The notes below the pieces were generated by a model, which saw nothing but the letters and a program-made list of their open reading frames with translations, had not been told where the DNA came from and searched no databases. Position numbers and translations under genes: made by a program. Source: Macrostomum lignano (Eukaryota). From it: a stretch of 64,000 bases of DNA. The DNA is taken from assembly GCA_002269645.1 (NCBI GenBank), contig NIVC01003939.1, positions 4,707 to 68,706 of the forward strand. Reading direction: 5' to 3'. Below are positions 1,758-54,298 of the stretch, one piece after another; the stretch's first letter is position 1, and each line of letters begins with the position of its first letter.

Positions 1758-2224
1758 TGACCGACTTGTGCACTGTTCTGCTACTTGTGTAAAATCTTAA
1801 AAACAGCAAAACTTCACAATAATTTGATACGCATGTCACCGCCAACTGCTTCAGACAAGCTGGTCTGTTCAAAACGTACACAAGTTTTTATTTATTTCTG
1901 CAATACAAACTATATATTGTATGCTATGATATGCAAGCATAAATATAATGAACCATATTACAAGAAAGGCATGATGTTTGCGATTTAGTTATGACATCGG
2001 TTGGGAGTCAACAAATTGTTAATACGCTCTTGTTTCAAATAATTTACAATTGATTCAATCTAATTGTTGTTAAACTATTATAGTTCTAAAAAAGACATGT
2101 ACATTGTAGGTCCAGCGCACTGGAAAAATAAGCGTATGGATAATATGAGAATTTAGGTTAGGGCTTTGAATTCTATTTTATCCGCAGTCCAATGACTGGC
2201 GGTGAAATACTGGTAGAGAGAATC

Positions 2225-3016
2225 TCACTTTTCCAGGATGTCTACCTGAGAATCTGACTCTCCCAGGATGTCTACCTGAGAATCTGACTCTCCCAGGATG
2301 TCTACCTGAGAATCTGACTCTCCCAGGATGTCTACCTGAGAATCTGACTCCCTCAAGATGACTACCTGAGAATCTGACTCTCCCAACCTGACTACCTGAG
2401 AATCTGACTCTCCCAACCTGACTACCTGAGAATCTGACTCTCCCAACCTGACTACCTGAGAATCTGACTCTCCCAACCTGACTACCTGAGAATCTGACTC
2501 TCCCAACCTGACTACCTGAGAATCTGACTCTCCCAACCTGACTACCTGAGAATCTGACTCTCCCAACCTGACTACCTGAGAATCTGACTCTCCCAGGATG
2601 ACTACCTGAGAATCCGACTCTCCCAGGATGACTAACTGAGAATCCGACTCTCCCAGGATGACTACCTGAGAATCCGACTCTCCCAGGATGACTACCTGAG
2701 AATCTGACTCTCCCAGGATGACTAACTGAGAATCCGACTCTCCCAGGATGACTAACTGAGAATCCGACTCTCCCAGGATGACTACCTGAGAATCCGACTC
2801 TCCCAGGATGACTACCTGAGAATCTGACTCTCCCAGGATGACTACCTGAGAATCTGACTCTCCCAGGATGACTAACTGAGAATCCGACTCTCCCAGGATG
2901 ACTACCTGAGAATCCGACTCTCCCAGGATGACTAACTGAGAATCTGACTCTCCCAGGATGACTAACTGAGAATCTGACTCTCCCAGGATGACTAACCGAG
3001 AATCTGACTCTCCCAA
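2225..3016. repeat. 30-bp minisatellite (~26 copies)
   Basis: Tandem unit ACTACCTGAGAATCTGACTCTCCCAGGATG with blocks of variants, downstream of the NUDT6 stop. Confidence 0.95.
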
Positions 3017-3123
3017 GCCAAGATGACTAACTAAAAACCAAAAGTTAGAAATTAAAATCCTGCCGAAAAAAGGAGAATTCTCAGATTAACAACTACAAAT
3101 TACGCTGCTATTAAAAAAGCTCT

Positions 3124-5010
3124 TTACCCGACTTCACCCAGCAACGGCCTGTGATACAGACTAACCCGTTTAGCCGTATACAACGAGTGCAATGCAAATC
3201 TTTGCATATCGACCGTCTTAAAACCGTTTCTTAATCCGAGTCTAATCAGCGGCAGAGATGCCCGCAGAATCGGCGCCACCTCCTCTGTCGGCAGTGCATC
3301 AAGCTGGGACACTGTCAGCCAATCAACCTTGGAAATCTCATCTGGACACGGCTTCAACTCGCCTCGCCGCTGTCCATCAAGACTCAGTCGGCACAGTACA
3401 TAAAAATCTGACCGATTAAAAGCCATCGGATGCCAGTGATGATGACGAAAGGCCAGCACAGACTCGAATCGCGCCGCGATGCCGGTTTCTTCCGCGACTT
3501 CGCGAACAGCCGCGTCGCCAATTTCTTCGCCTAAATCGGCGACACCGCCTGGTAGTTTCCATGGCGACTGATGAGGCTTCTTAGTCTGGGCGCCCTGCGA
3601 GAGAGGCAATGATGACTGAATGACTTACCTGTGAAAGAAACCATTAAGCAAAATTAACGCAATTTGGGGTAAACGGCAGGAGTAACTATGACTGTCTTAT
3701 AAAGGCTAAATGCTTCGTCATCTAATTAGTACTACGTCTATTCTTTGGGGTGGGCATTTTTGCGACTTACCTTGGTTGGCCGCCAAATCGGTCGGCCGGA
3801 TCGGCCGACTGTTGCGCATGTATGGCACTATTACGCCCGTAGTGGCAAACATAAAAATAGAAATTATAATTTTTATCTCTAACCTGTTTAGGCGGCAACC
3901 GATGCTCGCGGACGCACAGCAACGAATCGCCATCAATGAGCAAGCCTGCAACCCCGAGCTGATGCGTGCCAAACCGAGGCACTTTACTTGGCCGTCCTGG
4001 CCTCAGCCATTTCACCAGAGTCGCGTAGTAGCCTTCGGCGTGATGATAACGGAAGCCGTCGACAGCCAGGTGTGTAGTTAAACTGCTCAGGTGGAGAGGC
4101 ACTCGAACCCAGGCTGCCGGAGCTACTGTTAAACTGTTGGAGACCGCGTCTGGCTTGTGATGGTAAGAAATAAGGTCGAACTTTTGTACTTTGTTGTTCA
4201 TCATCACAAATTTTTATTTAACGATTTTCTTTAATGATCTTTGAGTTCATCTGTATTTTTTTTACAAAATTAATAATAATAATAATAATAATTGATTACA
4301 CCTGCCCCAATTCGGCAAGATTTGCAAACGACAGTTCTGAATGCTGCGTACGGCTGTTCAGTCCAATGACTGAGGGGTCGCCACACACGCCCTCAATTAC
4401 CCCAACCCCCTCGGGTTGTAGCCTAGTGGTTAGAGCGTCAAGGGCCCACTCGGAACAATCTGTGTCCTTGAGCACCACGTACACTTAACTCTTGCATTGC
4501 TTCAGTTCACCCAGCTGTAAAATGGATGCCAGCATTAGTTGGGGTAATTGAGGATGTGTGGCGACCCCCCAGTCATTGGACTGAACAGCCGTACGCAGCC
4601 TTCAGAGCTTCAGGCTACACAACTGGCCCAATTGGGGCAGGTGTAATCAATTATTATTATTATTATTATTATTACACCAAACTTCAACTACGTATGAATA
4701 TCACGTAGGTAGAATTAACAAGCGATAGTGTTACAAAGTACACTTAAAATTTTGATAGCAAACACTTCTATGAATACCCACCTCTTATATGCTCCATAAC
4801 TAGATCTTCATCAGTGCCCTCGTTAACAGCCGACAGGTCTAGCATAACGCCGCCATATCGATCCGTTGTCATAGCAACACCAGAAGCGTACGTTAACAAC
4901 CGTTTGTTATAATTGCTATTGCTAACAGCTACAGGTGTTGACTGTGCAAGTCTTGTTAGAAAATTTGCAGATCCAATAAGTCTGCAGCAACGCAGCATCA
5001 GACTGTGCAT
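3124..5010 (-). CDS. NUDT6: Nudix hydrolase NUDT6-like, 3 exons (5010-4782, 4149-3884, 3594-3124; ~321 aa)
   Basis: Nudix box WKLPGGVADLGEEIGDAAVREVAEETGI; NUDT6-type motifs DRYGG, GFRYHHAE, PRFGTHQLGVAG, AFNRSDFYVLCRL; GT-AG junctions keep the frame. Confidence 0.9.
3645..3825. mobile_element. ~180-bp dispersed repeat in NUDT6 intron 2; inverted copy at 56224-56408
   Basis: The reverse complement of 56224-56408 aligns by eye along its length (AGTAACTATGACTGTCTTAT, GGGTGGGCATTTTTGCGACTT, GGTTGGCCGCCAAATCGGTC, TTGCGCATGTATG). Confidence 0.75.
4271..4674. mobile_element. Foldback/MITE-like element in NUDT6 intron 1
   Basis: Arms 4271-4410 and 4536-4674 are reverse complements, beginning (TAA)n-TTGATTACACCTGCCCCAATT and ending AATTGGGGCAGGTGTAATCAA-(TTA)n. 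Confidence 0.8.
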
Positions 5011-6117: not shown

Positions 6118-6588
6118 CTACTTAGACATCCGCCTGGGTAAATAGAGTTTAGCCTGAGCAACAAGCAGCCCGAGCAGAGTTCGATACCACAATCGGTTAA
6201 ACTCGTACTGACCCTGGCGAGTCTGCTCAAGAAACTGCCTATAGAACTCGGCCATCTGGTCCGGCATCAGCTGCTCCTCGGGTGCAAACGCCAGCTCAGT
6301 TCGTTTAATAATCGAGAATCTGTCTTTAGCCAGCTTGAATGCCTGATTGTGCGCCGCCCAGTGCTTGTGGCAAAGGTCGAACGCGGCCAGGCGTTTATCG
6401 CGATAGCACCTGGCCTGGATGTCTCTTAACTCGTCACCGATTTTCACATCAACCGGCCGGATGCAAGATCGAGGATCTGGCGGGCCTACACTTTCCGATA
6501 TGCGATTTTTCGATCTCAAAGATGATGACGATGAAGAGGATAACAAGCGGCGGCTAATGCTGCTTAGACAGACGCGACTCACGCTCAT
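6118..6588 (-). CDS. COA8: Cytochrome c oxidase assembly factor 8 (APOPT1), intronless, ~156 aa
   Basis: Ser/Arg-rich mitochondrial presequence-like N-terminus; motifs VGPPDPRSCIRPV, HWAAHN, MAEFYRQFL, FNRLWY match the COA8/APOPT1 family. Confidence 0.85.
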   Translation of the reverse strand: MSVSRVCLSSISRRLLSSSSSSSLRSKNRISESVGPPDPRSCIRPVDVKIGDELRDIQARCYRDKRLAAFDLCHKHWAAHNQAFKLAKDRFSIIKRTELAFAPEEQLMPDQMAEFYRQFLEQTRQGQYEFNRLWYRTLLGLLVAQAKLYLPRRMSK

Positions 6589-6786
6589 TGCCTGCAAGAT
6601 TTGGAAAGAAACAAATCATTAGCTAAACTAATCATTAATATATAATATATTGTTTGTAAGCTTTTGTCTATGGCCAAAAACATCTCATCCACAGAGAGTA
6701 TTTTGAACACTTGAGACGAGCGTACGACAAGGGATAGAAAGTGTAACACAGACAGACAAATTCACACTTTGACAGATGGACAGTCT

Positions 6787-6828
<42 letters not shown>

Positions 6829-8151
6829 ACTACTAAGGACGCATTTATCCGGGCGTTTTGGAGGTGGGGTGGGTGTCAACCCTCCTCGCCTCTCATTGGC
6901 TGGCGCCCCGATCACTAGGTGATCGATACGCGTATCGATATCGGCGCTCGGCGCGCGCGCGCCGCAGGCGCGTGGCGCCAAGCGCCGCAGGCGCACCCTC
7001 CCGATATGTGCACCCTCCCGAGCCGCAGGCGACCCTCCAGAGCAGCAGGCGCCCATCCCGCAGGGGTACCCTCCCGATATGTATGCGCACCCTTCCGATA
7101 TGTATGTCGCAGGCCCCCATGCTGCAGGCGCCCCATGCCGCAAGCACCCCGAGTGTACACTCTACCGAGCCGCAGGCACCCCGAGTGTACACTCTACCGA
7201 GCCGCAGGCACCCCGAGTGTACACTCTCGCGATATGTACACTCTACCACTCTCCCGATATGTAAGATATCTAGTCAGCGATATTAGGCTAGTGAAAACTA
7301 CTTATAGTAGATGAAATTGCGTATATTTACATAAAAAGTAGATAAAACATATTGGTAGGTGTGAATAATGACGCATAATACATATTGGAGCATATGAGCA
7401 GCAAAAACACACAATGTAGGTGCATGGGCAGAAATAGACAAAGCAGGTACTGTAGGCGCTACATAGGTGGAAATACACACAGTATAATGCAGGTGCATAC
7501 ATACACACAATGTAGGTGCAAATTGAGTATAATACAGGAAAATTACATAGCATATAATGTAGGCGCATTTTAAACGATACATTTTGCATATTAACCCGCA
7601 GGCACAAAGTATATATCGGTCATAGGATAAAATACACACACTGGAAGTTAAGTATAATACAACATATGTATGCAAAATTAAGCATATAATGTAGGTGCAA
7701 AGTAAAATATCCAGCCCAGGATATTCGAGACACGCCCCCAGAGTCAGGGCCGGGGATCCCAATGTACAGTGCGGGCGGAGTAACATAGAGAAATTCCAAT
7801 TCCTCCCCAGGGCCGGGGGATCCTAGCGGAGTACAGTTCAGGTAGGAGCGTTCCTAGTCTGCAACCCATAGCTTCCAAATAGGGTACGAGGGGCCAATGT
7901 TTCGAGAGGGGATCCTCAGTACAGTGCGGTCAGAGAGGAGTAACATAGAGAAATTCCTCCCCAAGCCCCAAATAAGGTTTTTTCAAGGGGATCCCAAGTA
8001 CAGTGAGGGCAGAGAGAAATTCCAATTCCTCCCCAAATGGGGGTTATCAAGGACCCCTCACATTGCACAGGGCGGGCAGAATAACAGACCGCATACAAAT
8101 AGGGGTTTTAGCGGATCCCAAGTACAGTGCGCTCCCGGGTGTCAAATGATG
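6829..8151 (+). repeat. Left terminal inverted repeat (1,323 bp)
   Basis: Reverse complement of 14599-15921; mirrored ORFs sit at identical offsets from each end (29, 957, 1068 bp). Confidence 0.95.
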
Positions 8152-8534
8152 CCCCAATGTACAGTGGAGGTAGAGTAACAGACCGCATACAAAGAGAATT
8201 CCAGTCAAACTTTACCGCAGCTCCCACCCCAAATGAGGGTTTTAGTGGATCCCCAGAGGGTAGCTCTCCAAGTTGAGGGATCCCCCCAGTGTGTTGCGAG
8301 GCCCAAGTACAGTGCATGCAGAGAGTAACAGAGTACAAAGAGAAATTCCCTTATCAGTCAAACTCGAGCGCGATCTTCAGCCAGGGCAGTCTCCTCCTCA
8401 TCAGCGCTCTCGAAACATCTGTCAAAGTAAAAAATATTCAATGTAGACAGATTATATGTAATTTATATACGATTTATATGAAATTAAGCTTACCAAAAAT
8501 CGGGTTCGCGCTGTACGGATGCGGCACGCCTCAA

Positions 8535-9032
8535 TTAGCAACCCTCGTCAAACAGATTTCCCCAAGGGTAGGGTTTGATGCTGTCAAGGCAGTCCTGCAG
8601 ATTGTCCTCTGTCTTGACTCGCTTGGCTGGAGGGGGTGCCTCAGGTGCCGGCTTGAAGAGCTTGTCCAAACGGGCGGCAAACATCCTGCGCCACAGTTCA
8701 GGCGTGAATTCGATCGTGTAGCGCCAATTAAACTTTGGGTCCTGATTGAGCCAATTGCGCAGCAAACGGATCCTCCCTCGCGAAGCTTCAACTGCCTTGA
8801 AATTGCCCAACAGGACCCGCTTGTTCACGTGAAGGCGGGCAGCAGCCTCCAGGTCAGGGCGCGCAGCTTCGAGCTTCTTCCACTCTGGCTCGCTCAAGTA
8901 GATTGCAGGGAAGCCGTCCTTCCACACTCCAGCCTCGTTGGTGTAGAGACGCCGAATTTCAATCAAGTTGTGTTCAGTTTCAAATGTGGGCTTCCGCGCC
9001 ACAAAGTTTTCGTATAGAGAGATAGAAGACAT
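8535..9032 (-). CDS. PC4-like (transcriptional coactivator p15 fold) putative ssDNA-binding protein, 165 aa, probably two PC4-like repeats
   Basis: IEIRRLYTNEAGVWKDGFPAIYLSEPEWKKL parallels the PC4 core IDIREYW...[20 protein letters not shown]; a second weaker repeat IRLLRNWLNQDPKFNWRYTIEFTPELWRRM follows; TATA ~50 bp upstream. Confidence 0.65.
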   Translation of the reverse strand: MSSISLYENFVARKPTFETEHNLIEIRRLYTNEAGVWKDGFPAIYLSEPEWKKLEAARPDLEAAARLHVNKRVLLGNFKAVEASRGRIRLLRNWLNQDPKFNWRYTIEFTPELWRRMFAARLDKLFKPAPEAPPPAKRVKTEDNLQDCLDSIKPYPWGNLFDEGC

Positions 9033-9278
9033 GATTTAGCAGCAGCAGCAGCAGAGAGCTCTCTGACAGCCGTGCAGCGCCTTATATACCCCCGGATGGA
9101 GGGTGGGGTGGGTGGTGATTTTGGGGGTGATTTTTGATGATTTTGGTTGGTTTTTGGCGATTGACCAATAACAGGCGAGCTGAGCAGATTTTTTAGTATA
9201 TATACAGACCCCCCAGAGCCAGGGTAGAGAGATAATCCTTCTCTCTCCGCTCGCTCTCTCACGCTCTCTGTTTGCAAA
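9033..9278. promoter_or_regulatory. Divergent promoter between the PC4-like and pPolB genes
   Basis: Minus-strand TATATAA at 9082-9088, plus-strand TATATATA at 9197-9204, central CCAAT at 9165-9169; flanked by head-to-head ATGs (9032 and 9279). Confidence 0.6.
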
Positions 9279-12200
9279 ATGGCTAAACGCAGCGCCAACG
9301 CAACTGCTTTTCTGGCTGACAAGAGGCAACGTCTTTATGGTAAGTTTTAATTAATTTCTGTCTAGACTGTAGTTGCTAGGGTGAGGGTAGGGGCTGAGCT
9401 GCTGCGACAGCTGCAGGGTCTGTGGGACCGCAGAGTAAACAACAAAGACTGCTGCGACAGCTGCGGGGGTCTAGACTGGAGTTGCTAGGGTGGGGTGCTG
9501 CGGCAGGGTCTGTAACAGAGAGTTGCAGGGGAGGGCTAGACAAGTTACAGCCGGGTGTGTGCTGATAAGAAATTGCTGCTAGGGGGGTGTTGTCCAGACA
9601 GGCTGCAGCTGGGGTGCAAATTGCTGCGACAGAGAGTTGCAGGGGTGAGTAAACAAAGACTGGGGTGGGGTGTTGTCTAGACAGGGAGGGGTGTGCTGAT
9701 AAGAAATTGCTGCAAAAACAGACAGTTGCTAGGGTGCTGCGGCAGATAAGAAATTGCTGCAGAATCGTTGGGGCAGGCTAGACAAGTTACAGCCAGGTGG
9801 GGGCAGAGAGTTGCTGGGACAGACTGGGGCTGCAGATAGGGCGCTACCCAGACAGGCTGCAGCTGGGGTGCAAATTGCTGCGACAGAGAGTTGCAGAGTA
9901 AACAACAAAGACTGCTGCGACAGGCTGCAGCGGGGGTACAGATAAGAAATTGCAGAGAGTTGCTGCGGGGACAGCAGAGTAAACTCTGTTAAGAAATTGC
10001 TGGGGCTAGGGCGGGGAAACACGCTGGGGCCAGGAAAATGACAGATTCTTCTGGTTTTTTATCTCCTTGTGTTTTTTCAGACGCGTTTGTCCCGCCAACA
10101 CAGCCGGAATCTGTTACCGGACCGGGTGAGTTATCCAGCCCCCCATTTCCCACACAGACCCTGGCTGACTCACACTCCCCCATTCCCCCATGCAGGTTTT
10201 ACGGCCCGGCTGGATAATCAACGCGACCTGCCCAAGTTTAGGGCAAAGGGTGTCGAGTATGTGGTGCGTATTACCAACACCGAAGATTTGCGGGAGGTGT
10301 TTGCCGACATGCTCGAAGTTTTCAAGCAAGATTTGGCCGGCGAGGATTTCATGGCTGCGAAATTCGAGAGCGACAATATGCTCAAAGCAGCCCATACTCC
10401 CCCGGTGCGTGCAGCCCGCATGACGGCTGAATTGTTGTTCAAGCACATTGACAAGATTGTGCAGTCGGATGCAACTGTATTGTCAGGCAACTTTTCTGTC
10501 CGTCTGCTAAAGGCCTGGGTGCCCCGAGGTGGCTGTGCCCTCGAGAACAAGCATCTAGAAGAGCGGCACGCCTTCTCCAAGCACTATGTCCGCATCACCA
10601 ACTCGGACAAGAGATGCCTGCTGCGCGCTCTGGTCGTGGCCTGCGCCTACCTGCAATTCGTGGCCAAGTCCATCACCGAGGATGTGTGGCGCAGGATCAA
10701 GGCCAATTCGCCCAAGCAGACTAAGCTGGTGGCTGAGCTACAAATCGAGGCAGGCCTCTACACGGTAAGTTTCTAGTATTTTTCTGATAAGAATTTTTAC
10801 GATAAGGAATACTAAAAGAATTTTTACGCAGTATCAGGGAATACTAAAAGATATATTTTCTGATAAGATTTTTACACAGTATCATGGAATACTAAAAGAT
10901 ATATTTTCTGATAAGATTTTTACACAGTATCATGGAATACTAAAAGATATATTTTCTGATAAGATTTTTACACAGTATCAGGGAATACTAAAAGAACCAT
11001 ACTCTGATAAGAAATTTTACGATAAGGAACACTAAAAGAAATATTTTACCCTCCACACAGACTCTTCAAACCGTCTCGCAGGCTGGTCCTTTCGGGGTGG
11101 ATGCACTGCCCGAAGCGATCCGAGCCCTGAACCGGCTGCATCCGGGGCACGATTTTGGTGTACGCGTGTACCGCGCAGAGGAGGCCAACAGGTGCATCTT
11201 CAACCTGCCTGGCACCGAGATTCTGCACCTGCACCTGGTCGAGCAGCACTTTAATGTGGTTACCAAGCTGCCTGCGTTTTTCGGTGGCCGCCGCTACTGC
11301 CCCAAGTGCGAGATGGCCTATGATAGCGAACCCGCCAAGCACAAGTGCGCTGATGCCTGCAGTACATGCAAGACTCCGGGCTCCAACTGTAAGGCAAACC
11401 GCGCATATGTAAGATGCCATGATTGCGGGCTAAATTGCTATAATGCTCAGTGCCTAGAAAATCACAAGCGCAAGAATAAGGCCGGCAGATCGCGCTGTGA
11501 TTCGGTCCACGTTTGCGGCACGTGTGGCTATCTAGAAGAACTAAAAGTAGGCCAGCCCCCTGAGCATCAGTGTGGTTATGCCAAGTGCCCAGTCTGCAAG
11601 CAGTACGACGAAACTGCCACCCACGAGTGCTTTGTCACCCCGCCAAACGCCAAAGAGTCTAGCGCCCCGTATGTTTACTATGATTTCGAGACGTACGTGG
11701 ACTCTGGCAAGCAGCACCGGGTACACTTGGTTACGGCTGCCACCTCCTGCGAGGCGTGTCCCAAACTCTTCCCCAGGCCCCGCTGCAGCGTGTGCGGGGG
11801 ACTACACAGCTCAGCCAATTGCATTGCGGGACGCGATTTGGCACTCGATTTCACGAGCTGTGTCTCGCACAATGACTGTGCCTGTGGGATGCGAGAGTTT
11901 GTATCTGTCGGGCCGCACTCTATCGATGCCTTTTACTGCTGGCTGACTAGTGTGTTCAAGCAGGGGGCAATTGCTATTGCGCACAATGGCTCTGCGTATG
12001 ACGCATTCCTCCTGCTCGGCGCCCTACTCAACGGACTGGCCAAGAAGAAGCCGCAAGTGATCTTCCAGAACAGCCGCCTAATGTATATGAAGTGCGACAA
12101 GATCACCTTCAAGGACAGCCTCAATTTCATCCCTATTGGTCTGGCGCAATTCCCAAAGGCGCTTGGTTTGGGCACCCAACTGACCAAAGGAGATTTCCCG

Positions 12201-14437
12201 CACGTGTTTAACCAGCCTCAAAATTGGGGGTACGTCGGTCCCTACTGCTCAATTGATATGTACGGCGGGAAGAAGAATAAGCAGCATGACTCCATCGCCG
12301 ACTGGCTGGCCAAGCAGGAGGGACAGGTGTTTAATTTTAATAAGGCGTACCTGGACTATTGCCTGCAGGACACGTTAATTTTGCGGGAAGGCTGCCTGAA
12401 ATATGCCCGCCTGATTAAGGACATTTGCGGACTGGACGCATTTGTTCAATCCAACACCATTGCGGGCTTGGCCATGTCGGTATTCACCACCAAGTTTATG
12501 GAGCCCAACACTCTTGGGGTGATTTCCCGCCGGTCCGATGTACAGTCGCACAAGGCGCGGTGCTGGCTGGCACATTTAAATGCAACCGAGTTTGGCGGCC
12601 GGTTGCGGACAGCCGATTCTGGCGGCGAGGCTTTCGCCATGGGCCGTAAGGTCGACGGCTTCGACCCAGAGACCAGGACAGTGCTGCAGTTTCATGGCTG
12701 TTTCTACCATGGCTGTCCCAAGTGCTTCCCCAACGGCGACGTGCTGCACCCGCTCAAGAACCAGCCAATGCGAGCAATTTATGAGGAGACTGAGCGCTTC
12801 ACCCGGCTGCTCTCCACTGCATACAATGTGCGTGTTCTGTGGGAGCACGACTATCAGGACGAGGGAGCGCCAGTCCAGCAGCCTATTCGCCTGGAGGATG
12901 CCCTGTTTGGCGGCCGTACCGAGGCTTTTGTCCCGCACGCCGAGGCCACCGAGACTGTAGAGCTGCGCTATCGGGATGTGGTAAGTTTGTACACTTGTAC
13001 ACACACAGTTGACATGCGTTTGAGTTTATCTTATCCTTATCCCCTAGGTGTCGCTCTACCCGACTGTCAACAAGTTTGACAAGTACCCGGTCGGGCACCC
13101 GGTACACCACCCCGAGCCTCATCTACTGGATGAGCTGCAGCTGGCCCGGTATTTTGGCATCGCCGAGGTGTCGATTCTGCCGCCAACCAATCTCCACATC
13201 CCGCTACTGCCCGCCAAGATTAACAAGAAGTTGGTTTTCGGCCTCTGCCGCGTCTGCATGGAGACCCAGTGCAGCAGCGAGTGTACACACACTGACGCTG
13301 AGAGAATGCTCCGCGGCACGTGGTCGACCCCAGAGCTCCACAAAGCCCTGCAGTTGGGTTACAAGCTGCAGTCAGTTCATGCCCTGGCCTATTGGACCGA
13401 GACTCGCACGGGCCTGTTTGCAGATTATGTAAACACTTTTTTGAAGCTCAAAGCAGAGTCTAGCGGTTCGCCGGGGATGGCTGAGGACGCCAAGGCTGCC
13501 TACATGGCCAGCTTTTTCGAACGCGAAGGCGTCCGGCTGGAAAAGGTGGAGGAGAATCCTGGCTTGCGCTTTGTTGCCAAGATTTTTCTAAACTCGTAAG
13601 TTTTTTCTACTTGCAGTGGGGACCGTGTTTTTCTACTTACAGTAGCCAGATATACAAAAATTTATTTTTCCCCTGCAGGCTCTGGGGCAAATTCTGCCAG
13701 CGCGACGACCTGACCTCCACAGAGATTGTGGACAGCTACGAGGCGTGGCTGCAGCGCCTGACCGACCCCTCGATCAAGGTCAAGTCGTGCGAGCCAATTG
13801 GGGAGAGCTTCATGATGCTCGAGTACAAGCCCCGATTTGGCGGTGCTGGCGAGCGGGCGTTCAAGTACGCTAATGTACCTATTGGCGTTTTCACCACCTC
13901 CCACGCCCGGCTGCGACTCTACGAGGCTCTGGAGGGTCTAGGAACCCGCGTCATTTACGCCGATACTGATTCGTAAGTAATTTTTTCACTGTCTCTGTCT
14001 CTCTTTCTCCCCTTAACACTTTTTATCCTTCTCCTCCTCCCAGGGTCGTATACCGCTGCTCCCCGGGCGAGTACGAGCCTCCGGGCGGTTCGAGTTTGGG
14101 GCAGTGGACTGACGAGGTACCTGCTGGCTGCCGCATGGTACAGTTCACCACGGGAGGCCCCAAGCTCTACCGGTACGTGGTGGAGAAGCCCGACGGGTCG
14201 CTGTACTCGGTGCTCAAGTGCAAGGGCATCAGAGTCACGCCCGAGATTTCCGAGCGCGAGGACGAGCTGCAGGAAATTCTGCGTCACGGCGGGACTGTAC
14301 GCCTGCCCCAGGCCCAGTTCAGGCGCGATAAGGCCAGTTGTACAATAAGGACCCTCGAGATGGACAAGACTTTCCAGCGCGTGATGACTAAGAGGGTGTA
14401 TGGGGCCGCTAGCCGCCCGTATGGCTTTCGGGAGTGA
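9279..14437 (+). CDS. polB: Protein-primed family B DNA polymerase (Polinton type), 7 exons: 9279-9339, 10081-10125, 10196-10764, 11061-12980, 13048-13595, 13679-13972, 14044-14437 (~1276 aa)
   Basis: All junctions are GT-AG and frame-preserving (3831 nt). ExoI YYDFET, ExoII AHNGSAYD, FKDSLNF, KGDFPHVFN, ExoIII YCLQDT, FGGRTE, motif A YRDV/VSLYP, motif B KIFLNS/LWGKF, motif C YADTDS/VVY, GPKLY, KCKGI. The exon 4 acceptor could alternatively be 11082. Confidence 0.93.
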
Positions 14438-14598
14438 GTGAAAGATAAGGATCTATCTTTTTTACGCCTGGGATTCCCCTATGTGCCCACTTGGGATCCC
14501 TTGACTCGTGGGGATGAAAATGGTTTTACGCCCGCACTGTACTTAGGGGTCCTTACTCATTTGGCACCTCCACTGTACATTGGGGGGCGGGATTCCTT

Positions 14599-15921
14599 CA
14601 TCATTTGACACCAGGGAGCGCACTGTACTTGGGATCCGCTAAAACCCCTATTTGTATGCGGTCTGTTATTCTGCCCGCCCTGTGCAATGTGAGGGGTCCT
14701 TGATAACCCCCATTTGGGGAGGAATTGGAATTTCTCTCTGCCCTCACTGTACTTGGGATCCCCTTGAAAAAACCTTATTTGGGGCTTGGGGAGGAATTTC
14801 TCTATGTTACTCCTCTCTGACCGCACTGTACTGAGGATCCCCTCTCGAAACATTGGCCCCTCGTACCCTATTTGGAAGCTATGGGTTGCAGACTAGGAAC
14901 GCTCCTACCTGAACTGTACTCCGCTAGGATCCCCCGGCCCTGGGGAGGAATTGGAATTTCTCTATGTTACTCCGCCCGCACTGTACATTGGGATCCCCCG
15001 GCCCTGACTCTGGGGCGTGTCTCGAATATCCTGGGCTGGATATTTTACTTTGCACCTACATTATATGCTTAATTTTGCATACATATGTTGTATTATACTT
15101 AACTTCCAGTGTGTGTATTTTATCCTATGACCGATATATACTTTGTGCCTGCGGGTTAATATGCAAAATGTATCGTTTAAAATGCGCCTACATTATATGC
15201 TATGTAATTTTCCTGTATTATACTCAATTTGCACCTACATTGTGTGTATGTATGCACCTGCATTATACTGTGTGTATTTCCACCTATGTAGCGCCTACAG
15301 TACCTGCTTTGTCTATTTCTGCCCATGCACCTACATTGTGTGTTTTTGCTGCTCATATGCTCCAATATGTATTATGCGTCATTATTCACACCTACCAATA
15401 TGTTTTATCTACTTTTTATGTAAATATACGCAATTTCATCTACTATAAGTAGTTTTCACTAGCCTAATATCGCTGACTAGATATCTTACATATCGGGAGA
15501 GTGGTAGAGTGTACATATCGCGAGAGTGTACACTCGGGGTGCCTGCGGCTCGGTAGAGTGTACACTCGGGGTGCCTGCGGCTCGGTAGAGTGTACACTCG
15601 GGGTGCTTGCGGCATGGGGCGCCTGCAGCATGGGGGCCTGCGACATACATATCGGAAGGGTGCGCATACATATCGGGAGGGTACCCCTGCGGGATGGGCG
15701 CCTGCTGCTCTGGAGGGTCGCCTGCGGCTCGGGAGGGTGCACATATCGGGAGGGTGCGCCTGCGGCGCTTGGCGCCACGCGCCTGCGGCGCGCGCGCGCC
15801 GAGCGCCGATATCGATACGCGTATCGATCACCTAGTGATCGGGGCGCCAGCCAATGAGAGGCGAGGAGGGTTGACACCCACCCCACCTCCAAAACGCCCG
15901 GATAAATGCGTCCTTAGTAGT
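14599..15921 (-). repeat. Right terminal inverted repeat (1,323 bp)
   Basis: Mirror of 6829-8151; the differences I noticed are two compensating 1-bp homopolymer indels and one substitution. Confidence 0.95.
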
Positions 15922-17537: not shown

Positions 17538-19179
17538 TCAACTATTGTTCTTTCTCAAGTACAGCACCATTATAGCAGTGGTGGCAACCACGGAGCCGAT
17601 GCTGAAACCGGCAAAAAAGATGGCGGCATGACCCCAGTGGCGTCTGGCCTCGCTAAAAATCCTAGCAGCCAGGCTAAGCACGCGACACCTGCCCAGATAG
17701 AGCAGAAAGTACTTTATTAGACGCAAACAATCGGCCTGGGGATTCTGGTTAATAGCCGATCGAAGCACACCAGGCAACAAGTGGGCTACAAAGAACTGGA
17801 CCCGGACTAGGCCATTCAAGTCGTAGCTGCGGTGGAATTCCGTCTCTAGCTGGTTCACGAGGCGCGCGTACCTGAGCAATGGATAGAATGCATCCTATAG
17901 TAGAGCAAGTATTTTAACAAAATGGCTGGGGTATCTGGGATGGTGGCCCAGCAACTGAGAATCTGGGAGGCTGGCCCAGCAACTGAGGATCTGGAAGGCT
18001 GGCCCAGCAACTGAGGATCTGGAAGGCTGGCCCAGCAACTGAAGATCTGGGAGGCTGGTGGCCCAGCAACTGAGGATCTGGGAGGCTGGCCCAGCAACTG
18101 AGGATCTGAGAGGCTGGCCCAGCGACTGAGGATCTGGGAGGCTGGCCCAGCGACTGAGGATCTGGGAGGCTGGCCCAGCAACTGAGAATCTGGGATGGTG
18201 GCCCAGCAACTGAGTATCTGGGAGGCTGGCCCAGCAACAGAGGATCTGGAAGGCTGGCCCAGCAACTGAGGATCTGGGAGGCTGGCCCAGCAACTGAGGA
18301 TCTGGAAGGCTGGCCCAGCAACTGAGGAACTGGGAGGCTGGCCCAGCAACTGAGGATCTGGGAGGCTGGCCCAGCAACTGAGGATCTGAGAGGCTGGCCC
18401 AACAACTGAGGATCTGAGAGGCTGGCCCAGCGACTGAGGATCTGGGAGGCTGGCCCAGCGACTGAGGATCTGGGAGGCTGGCCCAGCGACTGAGGATCTG
18501 AGAGGCTGGCCCAGCGACTGAGGATCTGGGAGGCTGGCCCAGCGACTGAGGATCTGGGAGGCTGGCCCAACAACTGAGGATCTGGAAGGCTGGCCCAGCA
18601 ACTGGGGATCTGGAAGGCTGGCCCAGCAACTGAGGATCTGGAAGGCTGGCCCAGCAACTGAGGATCTGGAAGGCTGGCTCAGCAACTGAGGATCTGGAAG
18701 GCTGGCCCAGCAACTGGGGATCTGGAAGGCTGGCCCAGCAACTGAGGATCTGGAAGGCTGGCCCAGCAACTGGGGATCTGGAAGGCTGCCCTAAAAGTCT
18801 TGTGAACTCACGTGATTCGCTGCTGATTAAACTGATCAGCCAAGGTGCGCAACCGCCCAGCCTCCTGCGTGGAGGCAAAATCGGCGGCATACCGCCTGAG
18901 CTGCAGTCCGACATCGCTGTTTCGAAGGCTTGCCTGAGCTCTGTCCACAAAATCAGGCGGAGCGTTCACCGTTTCTTGGGCGGCCACGGTAGTGAGCGTG
19001 TTAATATTGATGTCTGGCACCTCTTGGGCTGCAGTGCTGGTCAGGAGACCAGTGGTGGCTTCTAGCACGTGCTGCTCAACAGGGTTGAGCTCGTTATAAT
19101 CGTACTCTGGCACCGTTGGAACAGTCTGGTCCGCTTCCTCTTCTGCTACGTAGGACTGCTCAGTGGATTTCTTTTCCAT
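17538..19179 (-). CDS. Divergent Bcl-2-family protein A, 2 coding exons (19179-18812, 17871-17538; ~233 aa)
   Basis: BH3-like VGLQLRRYAADF and GRLRTLADQFN, degenerate BH1-like EFHRSYDLNGLVRVQFFVAHLL, C-terminal TM IFFAGFSIGSVVATTAIMVLYL plus basic tail; frame-preserving GT-AG intron. Confidence 0.65.
17930..18790. repeat. 28-bp minisatellite family (CAGCAACTGAGGATCTGGGAGGCTGGCC), intronic array
   Basis: Same unit recurs at 21645-22325, 44107-44500, 45538-45880 (inverted) and 47550-48125. Confidence 0.95.
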
Positions 19180-21101: not shown

Positions 21102-22653
21102 TCACTTATCAATATTCCGCAGTAAAAAATAGCCAACAACGGCGCAGGCGGCAGAAGCCACGGCAAGACCGGACAAAAAACCCAACAGAGCTTCCTGACG
21201 CCTCTGGCTAAGATTTCGAAACATATTAGCCAGAAACTTGATCAGGTTAGCCAGCAGATAGGCTAGAAAAGCAAACATGAGCTGTTTGCACAGATCCTTG
21301 AACACGGATTCGCCGCCTTCAAAGTAGGCACGCTGCAACAGCCTAGCAACAAAATGGAACAGAGCTACGAACGATTCCACATTGTAGCCGGAGTGGAACA
21401 GCTGTTCGAGAATGTCAGTGAAGCTATGGGGATTGCTAGACAGCTCCGATAGGTTCACGCTGGCGGCCAGCTGATCCGCCTGGGTGCCCTGGCGAGAGGC
21501 GCGGAACTCGTCGGCGAGTCGGGACATCTCCTGCCCAAGGCTGCTGCTGCTCAGCTGGGTGCCCAGTGGGGACCGGAGCAGGTTGTTCACCTATAGAGTT
21601 TTTTGTTCATTGGTCGCGTGACACAAGAAGCTAATAAGAGTACAACTGGGAGGATTTGGGAGGCTGGTCCAGCAACTGAGGATCTGGGAGGCTGGCCTAG
21701 CAACTGAGGATCTGGGAGGCTGGTCCAGCAACTGAGGATCTGGGGGGCTGGTCCAGCAACTGAGGATCTGGGAGGCTGGTGGTCCAGCAACTGAGGATCT
21801 GGGACGCTGGCCCAGCAACTTAGGATCTGGGAGGCTGGCCCAGCAACTGAGGATCTGGGAGGCTGGTGGTCCAGCAACTGAGGATCTGGGACGCTGGCCC
21901 AGCAACTTAGGATCTGGGAGGCTGGCCCAGCAACTGAAGATCTGGGAGGCTGGTGGTCCAGAAATTGAGGATTTGGGAGGCTGGTCCAGAGACTGACACT
22001 CTGGGACGCTGGCCCAGCAACTGAGGATCTGGGACGCTGGCCCAGCAACTTAGGATCTGGAAGGCTGGCCCAGCAACTGAAGATCTGGGAGGCTGGTGGT
22101 CCAGAAATTGAGGATTTGGGAGGCTGGTCCAGAGACTGACACTCTGGGAGGCTGGCCCAGTAACTGAAGATCTGGGAGGCTGGTGGCCCAGCAACTGGGG
22201 ATTTGGGAGGCTGGCCCAGCAACTTAGGATCTTGGAGGCTGGTGGCCCAGCAACAGAGGATTTGGGAGGCTGGCCCAGCAACTGGGGATCTGGGAGGCTG
22301 GCCCAGCAACTGAGGATCTGGGATTCTAGCTCAATATCTAAGGATCTGGGAGTTGTGGCGGTTGGCCAACACGCAGATATCACCATTCAACTAGGTTGTC
22401 AGGTCACCTCGTTAGAGTCGCCCAGCAGCTCCCTGCTTGCAGACTCGGCCACAGCCTCGGCCTCGTGATTGACATCAGGCGGCAGCGGCATGTTCTCCAG
22501 GTTGTAGCGGAGCAAATCGTAGCTCATGCTGAACGCGGTTCGCTCCTCGGTTTCTAAACTTTCGAAACTCGGCAATCTTGGAGTCGAAGTCTCCGACAGA
22601 TTGACATCGCCGTGGCTCGTACCGGTTGCAGCCTCTTTCGAGTCTTTAACCAT
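21102..22653 (-). CDS. Bcl-2-family protein B (Bax/Bak/Bok-like layout), 2 exons (22653-22408, 21590-21102; ~244 aa)
   Basis: BH3 LGQEMSRLADEF, BH1-like LFHSGYNVESFVALFHF (canonical LFxDGxNWGRIVAFFxF), C-terminal TM ALLGFLSGLAVASAACAVVGYFLL. Confidence 0.75.
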
Positions 22654-22819
22654 TGCTCTACTTAGTAATTAATTAATTAATGCTTCTAATAGGTGTTTTA
22701 CGCAGAAGTGTCAGCAAAGGGAACAGTAGAAGTTTAATTTGAATTTTATATAATTAAAAAAAATATATGTGCCATCGATATTAGCTACTGTAGTACTAGA
22801 ATGTGCAAATGTGCTAACA

Positions 22820-25330
22820 TAGTTCAGATCTTGGTGAGAACAATTTTGGAGGAGAATCTCGGTGGGGGAATCTTGATGGGTAGTTTTGGTGGGGGAATCT
22901 TGATGGATAGTTTTGGTGGGGGAATATTGGGGAAGAGAATCTTGGTGGGTAGTTTTGGTGGGGGAATATTGGGAGAGAGAATCTTGATGGGTAGTTTTGG
23001 TGGGGGAATATTGGGGGAGAGAATCTTGGTGGGGAGAATCTTGGTGGGTAGTTTTGGTGGGGGAATATTGGGAGAGAGAATCTTGGTGGAGAGAATCTTG
23101 GTGGGTAGTTTTGGTGGGGGAATATTGGGGGAGAGAATCTTGGTGGGGGAATCTTGATGGATAGTTTTGGTGGGGGAATATTGGGGAAGAGAATCTTGGT
23201 GGGTAGTTTTGGTGGGGGAATATTGGGGGAGAGAATCTTGGTGGGGGAATCTTGATGGATAGTTTTGGTGGGGGAATATTGGGGAAATCTTGGTGGGTAG
23301 TTTTGGTGGGGGAATATTGGGGGAGAGAATCTTGGTGGGGGAATCTTGATGGATAGTTTTGGTGGGGGAATATTGGGGAAGAGAATCTTGGTGGGTAGTT
23401 TTGGTGGGGAATATTGGGGGAGAGAATCTTGGTGGGTAGTTTTGGTGGGGGAATATTGGGGGAGAGAATCTTGATGGGTAGTTTTGGTGGGGGAATATTG
23501 GGGAAGAGAATCTTGGTGGGTAGTTTTGGTGAGGGAATATTGGGGGAGAGAATCTTGGTGGGTAGTTTTGGTGGGGGAATATTGGGGGAGAGAATCTTGG
23601 TGGAGAGAATCTTGGTGGGGAGAATCTTGATGGGTAGTTTTGGTGGGGGGAATATTGGGGGAGAGAATCTTGGTGGGGAGAATCTTGGTGGGTAGTTTTG
23701 GTGGGGGAATATTGGGAGAGAGAATCTTGGTGAAGAGAATCTTGGTGGGTAGTTTTGGTGGGGGAATATTGTGGGAGAGAATCTGGGTGGGTAGTTTTGG
23801 TGGGGGAATATTGGGGGAGAGAATCTTGGTGGGGGAATCTTGATGGATAGTTTTGGTGGGGGAATATTGGGGAAGAGAATCTTGGTGGGTAGTTTTGGTG
23901 GGGGAATATTGGGGGAGAGAATCTTGGTGGGGGAATCTTGGTGGGTAGTTTTGGTGGGGGAATATTGGGGGAGAGAATCTTGGTGAGTAGTTTTGGTGGG
24001 GGGAATATTGGGGAAGAGAATCTTGGTGGGTAGTTTTGGTGGGGGAATATTGGGGGAGAGAATCTTGGTGGGGGAATCTTGATGGATAGTTTTGGTGGGG
24101 GAATATTGGGGAAGAGAATCTTGGTGGGTAGTTTTGGTGGGGGAATATTGGGGGAGAGAATCTTGGTGGGTAGTTTTGGTGGGGGAATATTAGGGGAGAG
24201 AATCTTGGTGGAGAGAATCTTGGTGGGTAGTTTTGGTGGGGGAATATTGGGGGAGAGAATCTTGGTGGGTAGTTTTGGTGGGGGGAATATTGGGAGAGAG
24301 AATCTTGGTGGAGAGAATCTTGGTGGGTAGTTTTGGTGGGGGAATATTGGGGGAGAGAATCTTGGTGGGTAGTTTTGGTGGGGGGAATATTGGGAGAGAG
24401 AATTTTGGTGGAGAGAATCTTGGTGGGTAGTTTTGGTGGGGGAATATTGGGGGAGAGAATCTTGGTGAGGAGAATCTTAAGGGGAGAATCTTGGTGGGGG
24501 AATATTGGTGGGGAGATTTTTAGTGGGGAGAATCTTGGTGGGGGAATATTGGTGGGGAGATTTTTAGTGGGGAGAATCTTGGTGGGGGAATATTGGTGGG
24601 GAGATTTTTAGTGGGGAGAATCTTGGTGGGGGAATATTGGTGGGGAGATTTTTAGTGGGGGGAATCTTGGTGGGGGAATATTGGTGGGGAGATTTTTAGT
24701 GGGGAGAATCTTGGTGGGGAATATTGGTGGGGAGATTTTTAGTGGGGAGAATCTTGGTGGGGGAATATTGGTGGGGAGATTTTTAGTGGGGAGAATCTTG
24801 GTGGGGGAATATTGGTGGGGAGATTTTTAGTGGGGGGAATCTTGGTGGGGGAATATTGGTGGGGAGATTTTTAGTGGGGAGAATCTTGGTGGGGGAATAT
24901 TGGTGGGGAGATTTTTAGTGGGGAGAATCTTGGTGGGGGAATATTGGTGGGGAGATTTTTAGTGGGGAGAATCTTGGTGGGGGAATATTGGTGGGGAGAT
25001 TTTTAGTGGGGAGAATCTTGGTGGGGGAATATTGGTGGGGAGATTTTTAGTGGGGAGAATCTTGGTGGGGGAATATTGGTGGGGAGATTTTTAGTGGGGA
25101 GAATCTTGGTGGGGGAATATTGGTGGGGAGATTTTTAGTGGGGAGAATCTTGGTGGGGGAATATTGGTGGGGAGATTTTTAGTGGGGAGAATCTTGGTGG
25201 GGGAATATTGGTGGGGAGATTTTTAGTGGGGGGAATCTTGGTGGGGGAATATTGGTGGGGAGATTTTTAGTGGGGAGAATCTTGGTGGGGGAATATTGGT
25301 GGGGAGATTTTTAGTGGGGAGAATCTTGGT
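22820..25330. repeat. G-rich minisatellite block (GGGAGAGAATCTTGGTGGGTAGTTTTGGTGGGGGAATATT and a second unit GGGGAGATTTTTAGTGGGGAGAATCTTGGTGGGGGAATATTGGT)
   Basis: 2.5 kb of tandem G-tract units, two sub-arrays. Confidence 0.95.
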
Positions 25331-26199
25331 GGGCCGGGGAATCTTGTTGAATTCTTGATGGACAATCGTGGTTGTCTGCGATTCACAGCCATTAAGGGCC
25401 AGCCCCCAAGGCACACAGAGTGTACATGCCTGACGATTAGATAGTCAGGGCCTGTGTGCACCCTGTGTGAGCGTGTGAATGAGTGCGTGCCTGCCTACAG
25501 TATTGGTTTAGCCTGTGCTCAGAAGTCAGCTGAATGGGCAGAATTGGCTCAGCGGGTAACTGACTGCGGGTAGATGTCGAAGAAGGCGTGTCAAGATGTG
25601 GCTAGGATGTGTACAAGCGTATAAATTCAGTAAGAATTAACATTTTTAAGTATAATGAAGCTGTATTTAATATATTTAAAAATGATACTTTTACTACCTG
25701 GACTTCAAGCAAGAATTAATTAAGGCGACAAAACTGATTCCAGCTTTTAAATCTATCAGATAAAAAACCGATACTTTATTAGAATTTGGACAAATTATTT
25801 TATAAAAAACACTATTAAAGTTATTAAAGCGAGATTTTATCACAAAAATAGGCACCCGGTGTACGCATTGCATAGAAATGAAACACATCATATTTATTCA
25901 CTTTAAAAGCGCACATTTGATAAGTTGATGAAGTTAGTCTAAACTGGAAAAGTGGCATCACTGGCATTGTTTTGGCAACTGCCGCATATCAGAGGCAGCA
26001 GTTGACCCCCGCAGCCAGCCATGGACAAGCAGTTGTAGCCCGTTCCGCTGACCCCCTGGGCTAACTCACACAGGGTTCACAGCGGGTGCAGTTTCGACTA
26101 TTGCTCTGCATTGTCTCAGGCAGTGTGTACACTCTGTTCAAAGTTAGAATTGGTCAACTTATTTAGAGACAAATGAGATGAATATTGGAATGAGTAGAT

Positions 26200-26925
26200 A
26201 GGAGAGGAAAGGAGAGAGGAGATAAGAGGAGAGGAGAGAGGAGAGGAGAGGGGAGAAGAGAGGAGATAAGAGGAGAGGAGAGGAGAGGAGAGGGGAGAGC
26301 AGAGCAGGGATTAGAGGGAGTGAGGAGAGGAGAGGAGAGGGGAGAGCAGAGCAGGGATTAGAGGGAGTGAGGAGAGGAGAGGAGAGGAGAGGGAGAGCAG
26401 AGCAGGGATTAGAGGGAGTGAGGAGAGGAGAGGAGAGGGGAGAGCAGAGCAGGGATTAGAGGGAGTGAGGAGAGGAGAGGAGAGGGGAGAGCAGAGCAGG
26501 GATTAGAGGGAGTGAGGAGAGGAGAGGAGAGGAGAGGGGAGAGCAGAGCAGGGATTAGAGGGGAGTGAGGAGAGGAGAGGAGAGGGGAGAGCAGAGCAGG
26601 GATTAGAGGGAGTGAGGAGAGGAGAGGAGAGGAGAGGGGAGAGCAGAGCAGGGATTAGAGGGAGTGAGGAGAGGAGAGGAGAGGGGAGAGCAGAGCAGGG
26701 ATTAGAGGGAGTGAGGAGAGGAGAGGAGAGGGGAGAGCAGAGCAGGGATTAGAGGGAGTGAGGAGAGGAGAGGAGAGGAGAGGGGAGAGCAGAGCAGGGA
26801 TTAGAGGGAGTGAGGAGAGGAGAGGAGAGGGGAGAGCAGAGCAGGGATTAGAGGGAGTGAGGAGAGGAGAGGAGAGGAGAGGGGAGAGCAGAGCAGGGAT
26901 TAGAGGGAGTGAGGAGAGGAGAGGT
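26200..26925. repeat. Purine-rich (GAGAG-based) minisatellite
   Basis: Unit AGAGCAGAGCAGGGATTAGAGGGAGTGAGGAGAGGAGAGGAGAGGGG with variable GAGAG count. Confidence 0.95.
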
Positions 26926-27172
26926 TGGAGAAGAAAAAGGGAGAAGAGAGCTGACAAGAGCCACACAGGTTAGGCGGGCCATGATTGCTATTGTACTGAC
27001 TCAAAGGCCCCCGAGGGTCGGATAGAGAGGCTTCGCTGACCGCATGTGACCGCCCATAGGGGTTGGCCCCGCACTGGAGAGACCAACGCAAGACAAGTGG
27101 AAGCGAACCTTTTGAATATTATGATTTTTCACGCCGTAAGCATAGTAAATGATCAATTCAGCTACAAAGGCA

Positions 27173-30100: not shown

Positions 30101-30471
30101 ACTGCAAAACAAGAGCACAGACACAAACTCAAAATACAGAATATACTTTGATTATTTAGCTCATGACTTACAATTTTATTATTAACGGTATCAACAGCCA
30201 CAATTCCGTAGCGATCATCATGCCTGATAATTTCATCGTAATAATCCTGCATATAGTCGAGTCCGTAGTGAATATCCGGTTCAATTTTCAACACTTCCGC
30301 TTTATCCGCCAGAGTGGCCAAACGGAATTGTAAATTCTCTTTCGGTATGGGAAATTTTTTAAATTTCTCCTCTAAATTGGCGTGCATGCTGATTTGGCTC
30401 AGCGAGGTGACTCGACGCTGGCCAGCCGTGGACAGGAAGCGGCGAGTGCAGAGAGCGGCGACTGACGACAT
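27173..30471 (-). CDS. GNAT acetyltransferase, NAT16/histidine N-acetyltransferase-like, paralogue A, 3 exons (30471-30172, 29027-28542, 27541-27173; ~384 aa)
   Basis: FRLAT..D..EVLKI..DIHYGLDYMQDYY parallels NAT16/HISAT GIYGGLDYLP; AIVNEGGRNLSFGGGRT parallels VIDAGETVLVEGLRV; three phase-0 GT-AG junction pairs. Confidence 0.7.
27620..28450. repeat. G-rich GAGAATCTTGGTGGG minisatellite in intron 2 of NAT16-like A
   Basis: Tandem ~15-bp units with a higher-order ~260-bp duplication. Confidence 0.9.
29050..30100. repeat. ~43-bp minisatellite in intron 1 of NAT16-like A
   Basis: Unit CATTAGAGATAGGGCCATAGACTGGTGCTGTGTACTGAATGTA, with a 350-bp higher-order repeat (ORF pairs offset by 350). Confidence 0.95.
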
Positions 30472-31846: not shown

Positions 31847-31859
31847 TGTCTAGTACGAC

Positions 31860-32487: not shown

Positions 32488-32571
32488 GAAGCCAAATGCC
32501 GTACGCTCTTAGACCTAAAAAACCAGTAAAAATTCAATCTGAAAAAAACCACTCAACAGTGCTCAACAATG

Positions 32572-34935: not shown

Positions 34936-35239
34936 TTCATGAATTTAAATTGCTTAAATGGATAAAATAGATAGATAGATCTAGATGTAGCAGGCCCAAA
35001 TAAACACGTATGGAGGCTTGCTGTTTATCTTATAAAAGTTTTCATTGGTACAACGCATTCTATCTCGGAGCACTAAACTCTGCCCGAGAATTATTAGAGC
35101 CTAAGTATTACAAATAACAGTAAAATTGTTACATTTAAAATAGGCTGAATTGAATATTTATTGCACAGTAATAAAGTATTGCTAAGTTTATTAAATCAAG
35201 TTAAATATTTGTACTGATGGCTCTATGCAGGTATTGAAA

Positions 35240-45198: not shown

Positions 45199-54298
<9,100 letters not shown>

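Follow-up and report, generated by a model that had tools for sequence, protein, structure and literature searches.

The Polinton-derived element and its genomic setting

The window analysed here is a stretch of 64,000 nt from Macrostomum lignano (contig NIVC01003939.1), and positions are counted from its first letter unless another contig is named. It contains a Polinton-derived element that carries a gene for a family B DNA polymerase that uses a protein primer (pPolB) and a putative gene for a PC4-like protein.

6829..15921: whole element, Polinton-derived, 9,093 bp, ends ACTACT..AGTAGT, pPolB and PC4-like gene only
6829..8151, plus strand: left terminal inverted repeat, about 1,323 bp, 99.8% identical to the right arm
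8535..9032, minus strand: putative gene for a PC4-like ssDNA-binding protein, 165 aa, divergent from pPolB
14599..15921, minus strand: right terminal inverted repeat

As in Polintons, the polymerase is a protein-primed family B enzyme (PF03175; alignment to the phi29 polymerase motifs), the terminal inverted repeats of about 1,323 bp fall within the range of 100-1,500 bp, and the target duplication has the characteristic size (5-8 bp, usually 6 bp). The duplication is GACAGA and lies within a (GACA)n tract; a 6-bp duplication was found in 11 of the 12 two-ended elements bounded by the ACTACT-type ends, the one in the window included, and also at two sister loci. At the same time, the ends read ACTACTA (ACTACGT in the sister subfamily) and not the Polinton end motif (AGT)2, (AG)3 or (AC)3A. 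No ORF for a retroviral-type integrase was detected in the 6.4-kb unique part of the element, and the ORF list and the profile search revealed no genes for capsid, packaging ATPase or protease in it. Because the element lacks these four genes, it does not qualify as an autonomous Polinton but works like a non-autonomous derivative. The PC4-like ORF gave two weak signals, a PF02229 match under the cut-off (E 0.034) and an atlas score of 0.87 that serves as a lead only; the gene is also present in the sister subfamily with 44% identity.

Exon 5 of the polymerase gene has 45 full-length matches in the genome at 95-100% identity and about 26 at 68-72%, and the element copies sit in different flanks. 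Elsewhere in the genome, no fewer than 111 matches to Polinton-type integrases and 73 to double-jelly-roll capsid proteins were found (L267-L285), a good part of them in open frames, as well as ATPase and adenain protease genes, which together indicate a large Polinton load. A PF04665 search of the genome returned nothing (150 of 375 scored), and since ATPase ORFs lie beside the capsid genes, this blank was a miss. A second Polinton family of the same genome (L264, L260 and L265 on G000:C1424, about 21,150-38,500; L259; L261) possesses AGTAGT ends, an intron-free pPolB to which endonuclease VII is fused (L259-L261), an integrase with a chromodomain, PC4 and a TBP-like gene.

The genome also harbours giant non-coding palindromes (L081-L089, L094-L097 and L100, e.g., G000:C2288:3661-12793), mostly 8-9.4 kb long with arms of up to 4.6 kb, which share with the element the ACTACTA ends, a 150-bp subterminal core and the 6-bp target duplications. 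Their size is close to that of the pPolB element, of which they are non-autonomous companions. At L093 and L099 the same end adjoins a tandem array of about 150-bp units. The idea of a segmented Polinton was rejected: the end-sharing L081-L089 were non-coding in the arm read and in the ORF and tblastn screens, and none of the 27 integrase, capsid or other-pPolB loci (L259-L285) linked an integrase or capsid gene to the ends of the element, the latter being a weak test since these loci mostly comprise only 3-4 kb. About 20 bases following ACTACTA (6829-6860 and 15890-15921) vary among copies and are matched between both ends of each copy, as would be expected if the ends were homogenised during replication. 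Head-to-head inverted half copies and multi-copy pPolB contigs were also observed (L058 and G000:C3085; G000:C157, C471 and C513). The window itself is rich in minisatellites with units of 15, 22, 28, 30 and 31 bp (2100-3150, 17900-18900, 24300-28200, 40700-41700 and 51100-53000), and directly to the left of the element a 165-codon stop-free frame lies in GC-richer DNA on the minus strand (6118-6615).

Structure of the pPolB gene

The pPolB gene consists of seven exons with a total length of 3,831 nt, which encode 1,276 aa uninterrupted by any stop. Features on the plus strand are as follows (a slash marks the splice site in the protein).

9279..9339, plus strand: exon 1, start inferred
9340..10080, plus strand: intron 1, predicted, 741 nt, phase 1, variable region; acceptor common to the sister subfamily
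10081..10125, plus strand: exon 2
10126..10195, plus strand: intron 2, predicted, 70 nt, phase 1, variable region; sister locus L041 has an intron at this place
10196..10764, plus strand: exon 3, presumably encoding the terminal-protein region and the beginning of vOTU, including its invariant Cys
10765..11060, plus strand: intron 3, predicted, 296 nt, phase 0, variable region; also found at this place in 15 of 19 sister loci
11061..12980, plus strand: exon 4, 1,920 nt, remaining vOTU, Cys-rich region, exonuclease, VSR insertion and first half of motif A
12981-13047, plus strand: intron in motif A, 67 nt, GTAAGT..TAG, phase 0, YRDV/VSLYP
13048..13595, plus strand: exon 5
13596-13678, plus strand: intron in motif B, 83 nt, GTAAGT..CAG, phase 2 in Ser, KIFLNS/LWGKF
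13679..13972, plus strand: exon 6
13973-14043, plus strand: intron in motif C, 71 nt, GTAAGT..CAG, phase 2 in Ser, YADTDS/VVY
14044..14437, plus strand: exon 7, to the stop codon

The original prediction had placed one spliceosomal intron inside each of the polymerase motifs A, B and C, and upon re-reading, the coordinates, lengths, phases and splice ends of all three proved exact. The 1.9-kb exon encoding the exonuclease and VSR regions had been described as free of introns, and indeed no joint is listed inside the 1,920-nt exon in the contigs of four runs; the open frame that would end at 13079 when intron A is retained is present in the ORF list as well. Inside exon 4 there is a possible alternative acceptor at 11081, 21 nt into the exon, the use of which would remove 7 residues; contigs crossing 11061-11081 favour the acceptor at 11060 without settling the choice.

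Two of the exon ORFs match PF03175 above the cut-off (E 8.5e-17 and 4.9e-13). In the family profile, motifs A, B and C align to those of the phi29 polymerase with a whole-chain E value of 6.7e-5, the single stretches being weak alone, and the insertion between the exonuclease and the palm is a VSR nuclease, its profile matching E. coli Vsr (E 7e-5). The motifs VDGF and FHGCFYHGC were found in exon 4. An invariant Cys and a near-invariant His occupy the places expected for TP-vOTU, a domain designation made from sequence only and following the accessible text of PMC11161782. Near-identical proteins in UniRef are labelled Macrostomum lignano, and outside relatives show 23-30% identity over exon 4 and mostly 31-38% over the palm region.

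The expectation that ORF-based searches would miss this gene was borne out only in part. The exon ORFs match PF03175 and UniRef contains gene models, but few of the models are intact: all three motifs are preserved in 7 of the 40 host gene models retrieved, some of which may come from decayed copies. Gene callers often mis-splice pPolB at the very motifs on which phylogeny relies.

Splicing of the motif introns

Contigs from four public runs, three of them guessed to be RNA and one of a kind not given, were aligned to 11061-14480. The joint at intron A was present in two of the four runs (X1 and X2) and the joint at intron B in three (X1, X2 and X4), while the joint at intron C was seen only as a piece break (13972/14044) in one 1,729-nt contig of X2 (record 20). 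This same contig, from a probable RNA run, skips all three motif introns. In run X15, the one whose kind is not given, no joint was listed and introns A, B and C were covered at full depth. Unspliced material was also detected in X4, in which a contig enters a variant of intron A and the letters of intron C occur at a depth of 26.8. As several letters of the contigs do not agree with the window, they are evidence for the family, not provably for the window copy.

The motif introns have the properties of U2 spliceosomal introns, namely GT..AG ends, a GTRAGT donor, a pyrimidine tract and removal from RNA, with the RNA label of the runs being guessed. They are thus ordinary U2-type introns removed from the pPolB transcript by the host spliceosome, and their removal by splicing is required to make the polymerase. 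The properties of group I introns and inteins were not found: the motif introns are 67-83 nt long and drift freely in both length and sequence. When compared as possible introners, the four short introns were 0.46-0.58 identical to each other, which is the level of shuffled sequences.

Age of the introns and selection on them

Among loci of the window's own subfamily, donors and acceptors are intact in 30 of 30 for intron A, 30 of 30 for intron B and 29 of 30 for intron C, whereas the lengths range over 65-111, 67-83 and 67-75 nt, respectively. In 25 equal-length copies, pN/pS of exons 5 and 6 was 0.022. The splice sites and exons are therefore under purifying selection, which is strong in the close copies, while the intron bodies drift. 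No intron-free copies were found in this subfamily, either among the 40 scored of 118 DNA candidates or in the 30 loci.

The protein of the sister subfamily is 64-65% identical over profile columns. Introns of the same position and phase are present there in 19 of 19 loci for A, 19 of 19 for B, 18 of 19 for C and 15 of 19 for intron 3; intron 2 and the acceptor of intron 1 are common to the sister subfamily in the single locus read (L041). The sister and window introns are 0.52-0.55 identical, compared with 0.49-0.54 for shuffles, and exon 5 of the two differs by a pS of 0.75 and a pN of 0.21, i.e., synonymous sites are saturated. The two subfamilies have the introns at the same positions in spite of saturation at synonymous sites and unrelated intron bodies, so the introns are old; they are required for expression and are free of other constraint.

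Open frames of 867-873 aa initially resembled a sister family that had lost the introns. However, they contain an intron A that is in frame and stop-free, as it is in 12 of the 19 sister loci. In the sister loci L041-L058 and L060, intron A often measures 81 or 87 nt and has no stop; within it lies ACTACTA(A/G)TATAGTAG, a sequence similar to the end motif of the element.

Probable gain of introns and independent cases

We screened 92 viral and metagenome loci related to pPolB for introns, searching for gaps over the whole profile-covered gene. The 44 of 56 viral loci that matched only a VSR-like stretch were excluded, and the metagenome part comprised the best 80 of 480 matches, in which an unbroken motif B or VSR motif was required. 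Of the loci spanning them, 82 of 90 had motif A contiguous by pattern, 78 of 89 motif B and 71 of 78 motif C; the non-contiguous loci other than L218, L227 and L205 look like motif variants, frameshifts or partial genes. A second scan, of viral contigs, found nothing.

Five GT-AG introns were predicted in three of the 92 distant loci, and four of the five lie in or beside conserved motifs. In L218 the predicted intron (768-891) falls in the Ser of DFTSLYP, which is motif A. L227 has one in the VSR motif GCFWHG (1864-1939) and another four residues before the Asp of motif A (2232-2307), and in L205 one is located in a variable stretch (289-350) and one in NSFWG of motif B (1525-1580). Other gaps in the screen occurred in L103, L105, L159, L162, L164, L169, L176, L181, L183, L201, L210, L216, L221 and L233. 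In the eight of these that were read, no GT-AG intron stood out among frameshifts and inserts that were Cys-rich or of low complexity; L105, L159, L162, L164 and L183 were dropped because their gaps coincide with that of L181 in the Cys-rich part of the profile, and L233 for overlapping matches.

The intron positions in L218, L227 and L205 are 5-13 nt off those of the window. The check originally proposed, on the conservation of intron positions in homologues, gives the same positions for the sister subfamily and other positions for the distant relatives. Offsets of this size are as expected from separate gains around one site. In a tree of 155 of 159 rows (four removed for low coverage), the window, L218, L227 and L205 belong to different clades, 1.5-2.7 substitutions per site apart, and L218 and L205 are in supported clades (0.91-0.99) with loci showing no intron. 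The tree is unrooted and its deep supports are low; its database proteins have no DNA, and the intron state is readable for the DNA rows.

Within the genome itself, the single decayed VSR-type pPolB L059 (G000:C234, about 57,000-59,400), 35% identical to that of the window, has no intron at A, B or C, and its empty site at A reads GTG/GT. The motifs are unbroken in the endonuclease VII-type family (L259-L261) as well, and the accessible text of PMC8097293 presents intact vertebrate Mavericks as intron-free. Parsimony suggests that the motif introns were gained in the lineage of the window, since introns are absent from most Polinton pPolBs and those gained by other lineages are different ones at nearby positions.

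Placement of the introns relative to conservation

With per-column scores from 60 outside pPolBs as the reference, the sites in motifs A, B and C ranked in the top 2.5%, 0.2% and 2.5% of conservation, respectively, when five residues on each side were considered. By the permutation test originally proposed, the motif placement exceeds chance: the best three of six introns gave P 0.0003-0.003 over three window sizes, a post hoc choice. The mean of all six is not significant (P 0.44-0.69), because introns 1-3 are located in the least conserved parts of the gene. In the catalytic core only, P was 6e-5 to 6e-4, and the out-of-sample test on the five predicted introns of the three distant loci resulted in a joint P of 0.006-0.016. 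The motif bias is statistically supported and apparently recurrent.

The simplest alternative is that the gains were random and were noticed because readers and profile searches recognise motifs. The half of the introns that sits in the least conserved regions and the non-significant statistic for all six speak for this explanation; in addition, the outside sample consists of only five introns, and since in-frame stop-free introns escape the gap screen, such introns in variable loops would have passed as insertions. However, chance has to accommodate the low P values obtained for the top three introns and for the core, and also the out-of-sample result, for which the screen extended across the whole profile-covered gene. 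Moreover, the requirement for an unbroken motif B or VSR motif made the metagenome scan work against finding motif introns. We therefore regard chance combined with ascertainment as unlikely, while leaving it some weight.

Another possibility is that the composition of the motifs attracts introns, the codons of conserved Ser (AGY) and Gly (GGN) supplying AG/ and G/GT insertion sites. Five of the eight core intron sites are indeed in the top 2% or so for the share of AG/ or G/GT among intron-free relatives. However, conserved windows contain at most a small excess of these contexts (0.029 vs 0.019; for AG/ 0.045 vs 0.065), and the window's B and C sites are TC/G and not AG/. Context-weighted nulls still gave P <= 2e-5 for the three window sites, and nulls conditioned on the window's own contexts gave P <= 0.0013. 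As the weighted nulls fail to reproduce the bias, protosplice composition as the sole cause is largely refuted, and we consider it quite improbable.

Possible origin of the motif bias

The original prediction also raised a safety switch, in which regulated intron retention would turn the polymerase off or yield a TP-OTU-Exo-VSR product. Regulated retention has a parallel in IVS3 of the P element, unspliced intron A and C material does occur in run X4, and retention does stop or disrupt the polymerase. At the same time, the unspliced contigs may be pre-mRNA or DNA, and in 30 copies the product of retained intron A extends into the intron by anything from 9 to 38 aa, which means that the truncation point is not conserved. 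The stop-free intron A of most sister loci would not truncate the protein in this way, and the intron bodies share no conserved element between the subfamilies. Besides, any frame-breaking intron upstream of motif C would kill the activity, so that position in a motif adds nothing to the off-state, and the instant stop on retaining intron B or C is a property of any phase-2 GTRA donor. The switch is thus poorly supported, and we assign it a low probability. Still less probable is an origin by copying from the polymerase genes of the host, through recombination at conserved motifs, or a descent from group I introns or inteins formerly present there. Inteins in family B polymerases occupy motifs A, B and C, and the motifs alone are similar enough for such recombination, but A, B and C are uninterrupted in host pol delta, alpha and zeta in 9 of 9 cases, which rules out transfer from these three, and the introns are 67-83 nt long, mutually unlike (0.46-0.58), lack any coding remnant and differ in position between lineages.

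The explanation that we prefer, with about an even chance of being right, is that the motif introns are constitutive and late-gained and that they were fixed by intein-like dynamics in a selfish multi-copy gene, with no regulatory role. The available portions of PMC2814812 attribute the location of inteins and group I introns at conserved sites to homing nucleases and to the need for exact loss, and state that spliceosomal introns in host genes show no such bias. Unlike host genes, the genes of Polinton polymerases are multi-copy and selfish and have fused nuclease domains. For an intron in a motif, exact excision would be the only route of loss, and the intron would interrupt the most conserved DNA of the gene, which is the target expected for a homing-type nuclease. 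Nuclease domains of this kind are present in Polinton polymerases (see the parts of PMC10748475 at hand), VSR in the window gene and endonuclease VII in the co-resident family, and homing-type nucleases are reported in Polinton-like viruses in the accessible text of PMC12220804. At those sites, motif introns would thus more often arise, gain protection or arrive by copying, and then be kept. Cuts at motifs, immune intron copies and the lack of an imprecise exit would together concentrate introns at the motifs while shifting them slightly, by a few bases, from one lineage to another, which is the pattern observed. The element itself would replicate by its own pPolB and PC4-like protein, with the integrase borrowed from the other Polintons of the genome.

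A more specific form of these intein-like dynamics, which we hold to be possible but rather doubtful, is that Polinton nucleases cut intron-free motif DNA and that a spliceable repair insert, as the sole change tolerated at a motif, gives immunity and spreads by gene conversion. If true, spliceosomal introns would be undergoing collaborative homing, in this case within a minimal replicon of two genes with a borrowed integrase. The exonuclease and VSR motifs of the window gene, which are equally conserved and have no intron, count against an intein-like mechanism. Furthermore, both subfamilies have kept introns 1-3 in variable regions, and the argument that only motif introns survive is weaker for it in its pure form.

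Irrespective of the mechanism, the motif introns are a real, spliced and selected feature. They are an exception to two generalisations, as these stand in the accessible texts: that intact Polinton genes are intron-free (in vertebrates) and that spliceosomal introns ignore conserved sites. With an intron-free ancestor and many lineages, the family would offer replicated intron gains with a known empty site, and hence where and how spliceosomal introns arise becomes directly testable. The element is also an unusual reduced form of Polinton, having a pPolB and a PC4-like gene, no integrase or capsid, a reversed end motif and 9-kb non-coding palindromic companions.

Comparison with known systems

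In the literature covered, which did not include Repbase, subscription journals and supplements, we found no report of motif-located spliceosomal introns in a Polinton pPolB or of this element. The closest relatives are Polintons/Mavericks with a VSR-bearing pPolB (PMC10748475 and PMC8097293, in their accessible parts), with which the element shares a PF03175 pPolB with a VSR insertion, long inverted repeats and the 6-bp duplication; the window pPolB is 26-36% identical to animal Polinton polymerases. Unlike these Polintons, as far as they are described there, the element lacks integrase, capsid, ATPase and protease and measures 9 kb instead of 13-25 kb. Its ends are also reversed, ACTACT..AGTAGT in place of the usual (AGT)2..(ACT)2, and its pPolB has six introns, whereas none are described for intact vertebrate Mavericks in the available text of PMC8097293. 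With regard to reduced gene content, the element resembles transpovirons and pPolB linear plasmids (PMC11161782, accessible part) in being a Polinton-derived replicon without a virion module, but differs from them in being integrated in the nucleus with target duplications and in having a full, exonuclease-bearing and spliced pPolB.

A spliceosomal intron in a viral DNA polymerase is already known from Chlorovirus PBCV-1; according to the available text of PMC7019647 it is, however, one intron in the RNA-primed PolB of a giant virus. Host-type introns within Polinton-like elements have a counterpart in the introners of dinoflagellate Polinton-like proviruses. As presented in the accessible part of PMC12166617, those are young copies of intron-making transposons, for which that part mentions no motif bias, while the window introns are old, mutually unlike and conserved in position. 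The location of the window introns in the most conserved, catalytic parts of the protein is that of inteins and group I introns (PMC2814812, in the portions available), yet they are GT-AG introns of small size and themselves bring neither a splicing nor a nuclease function.
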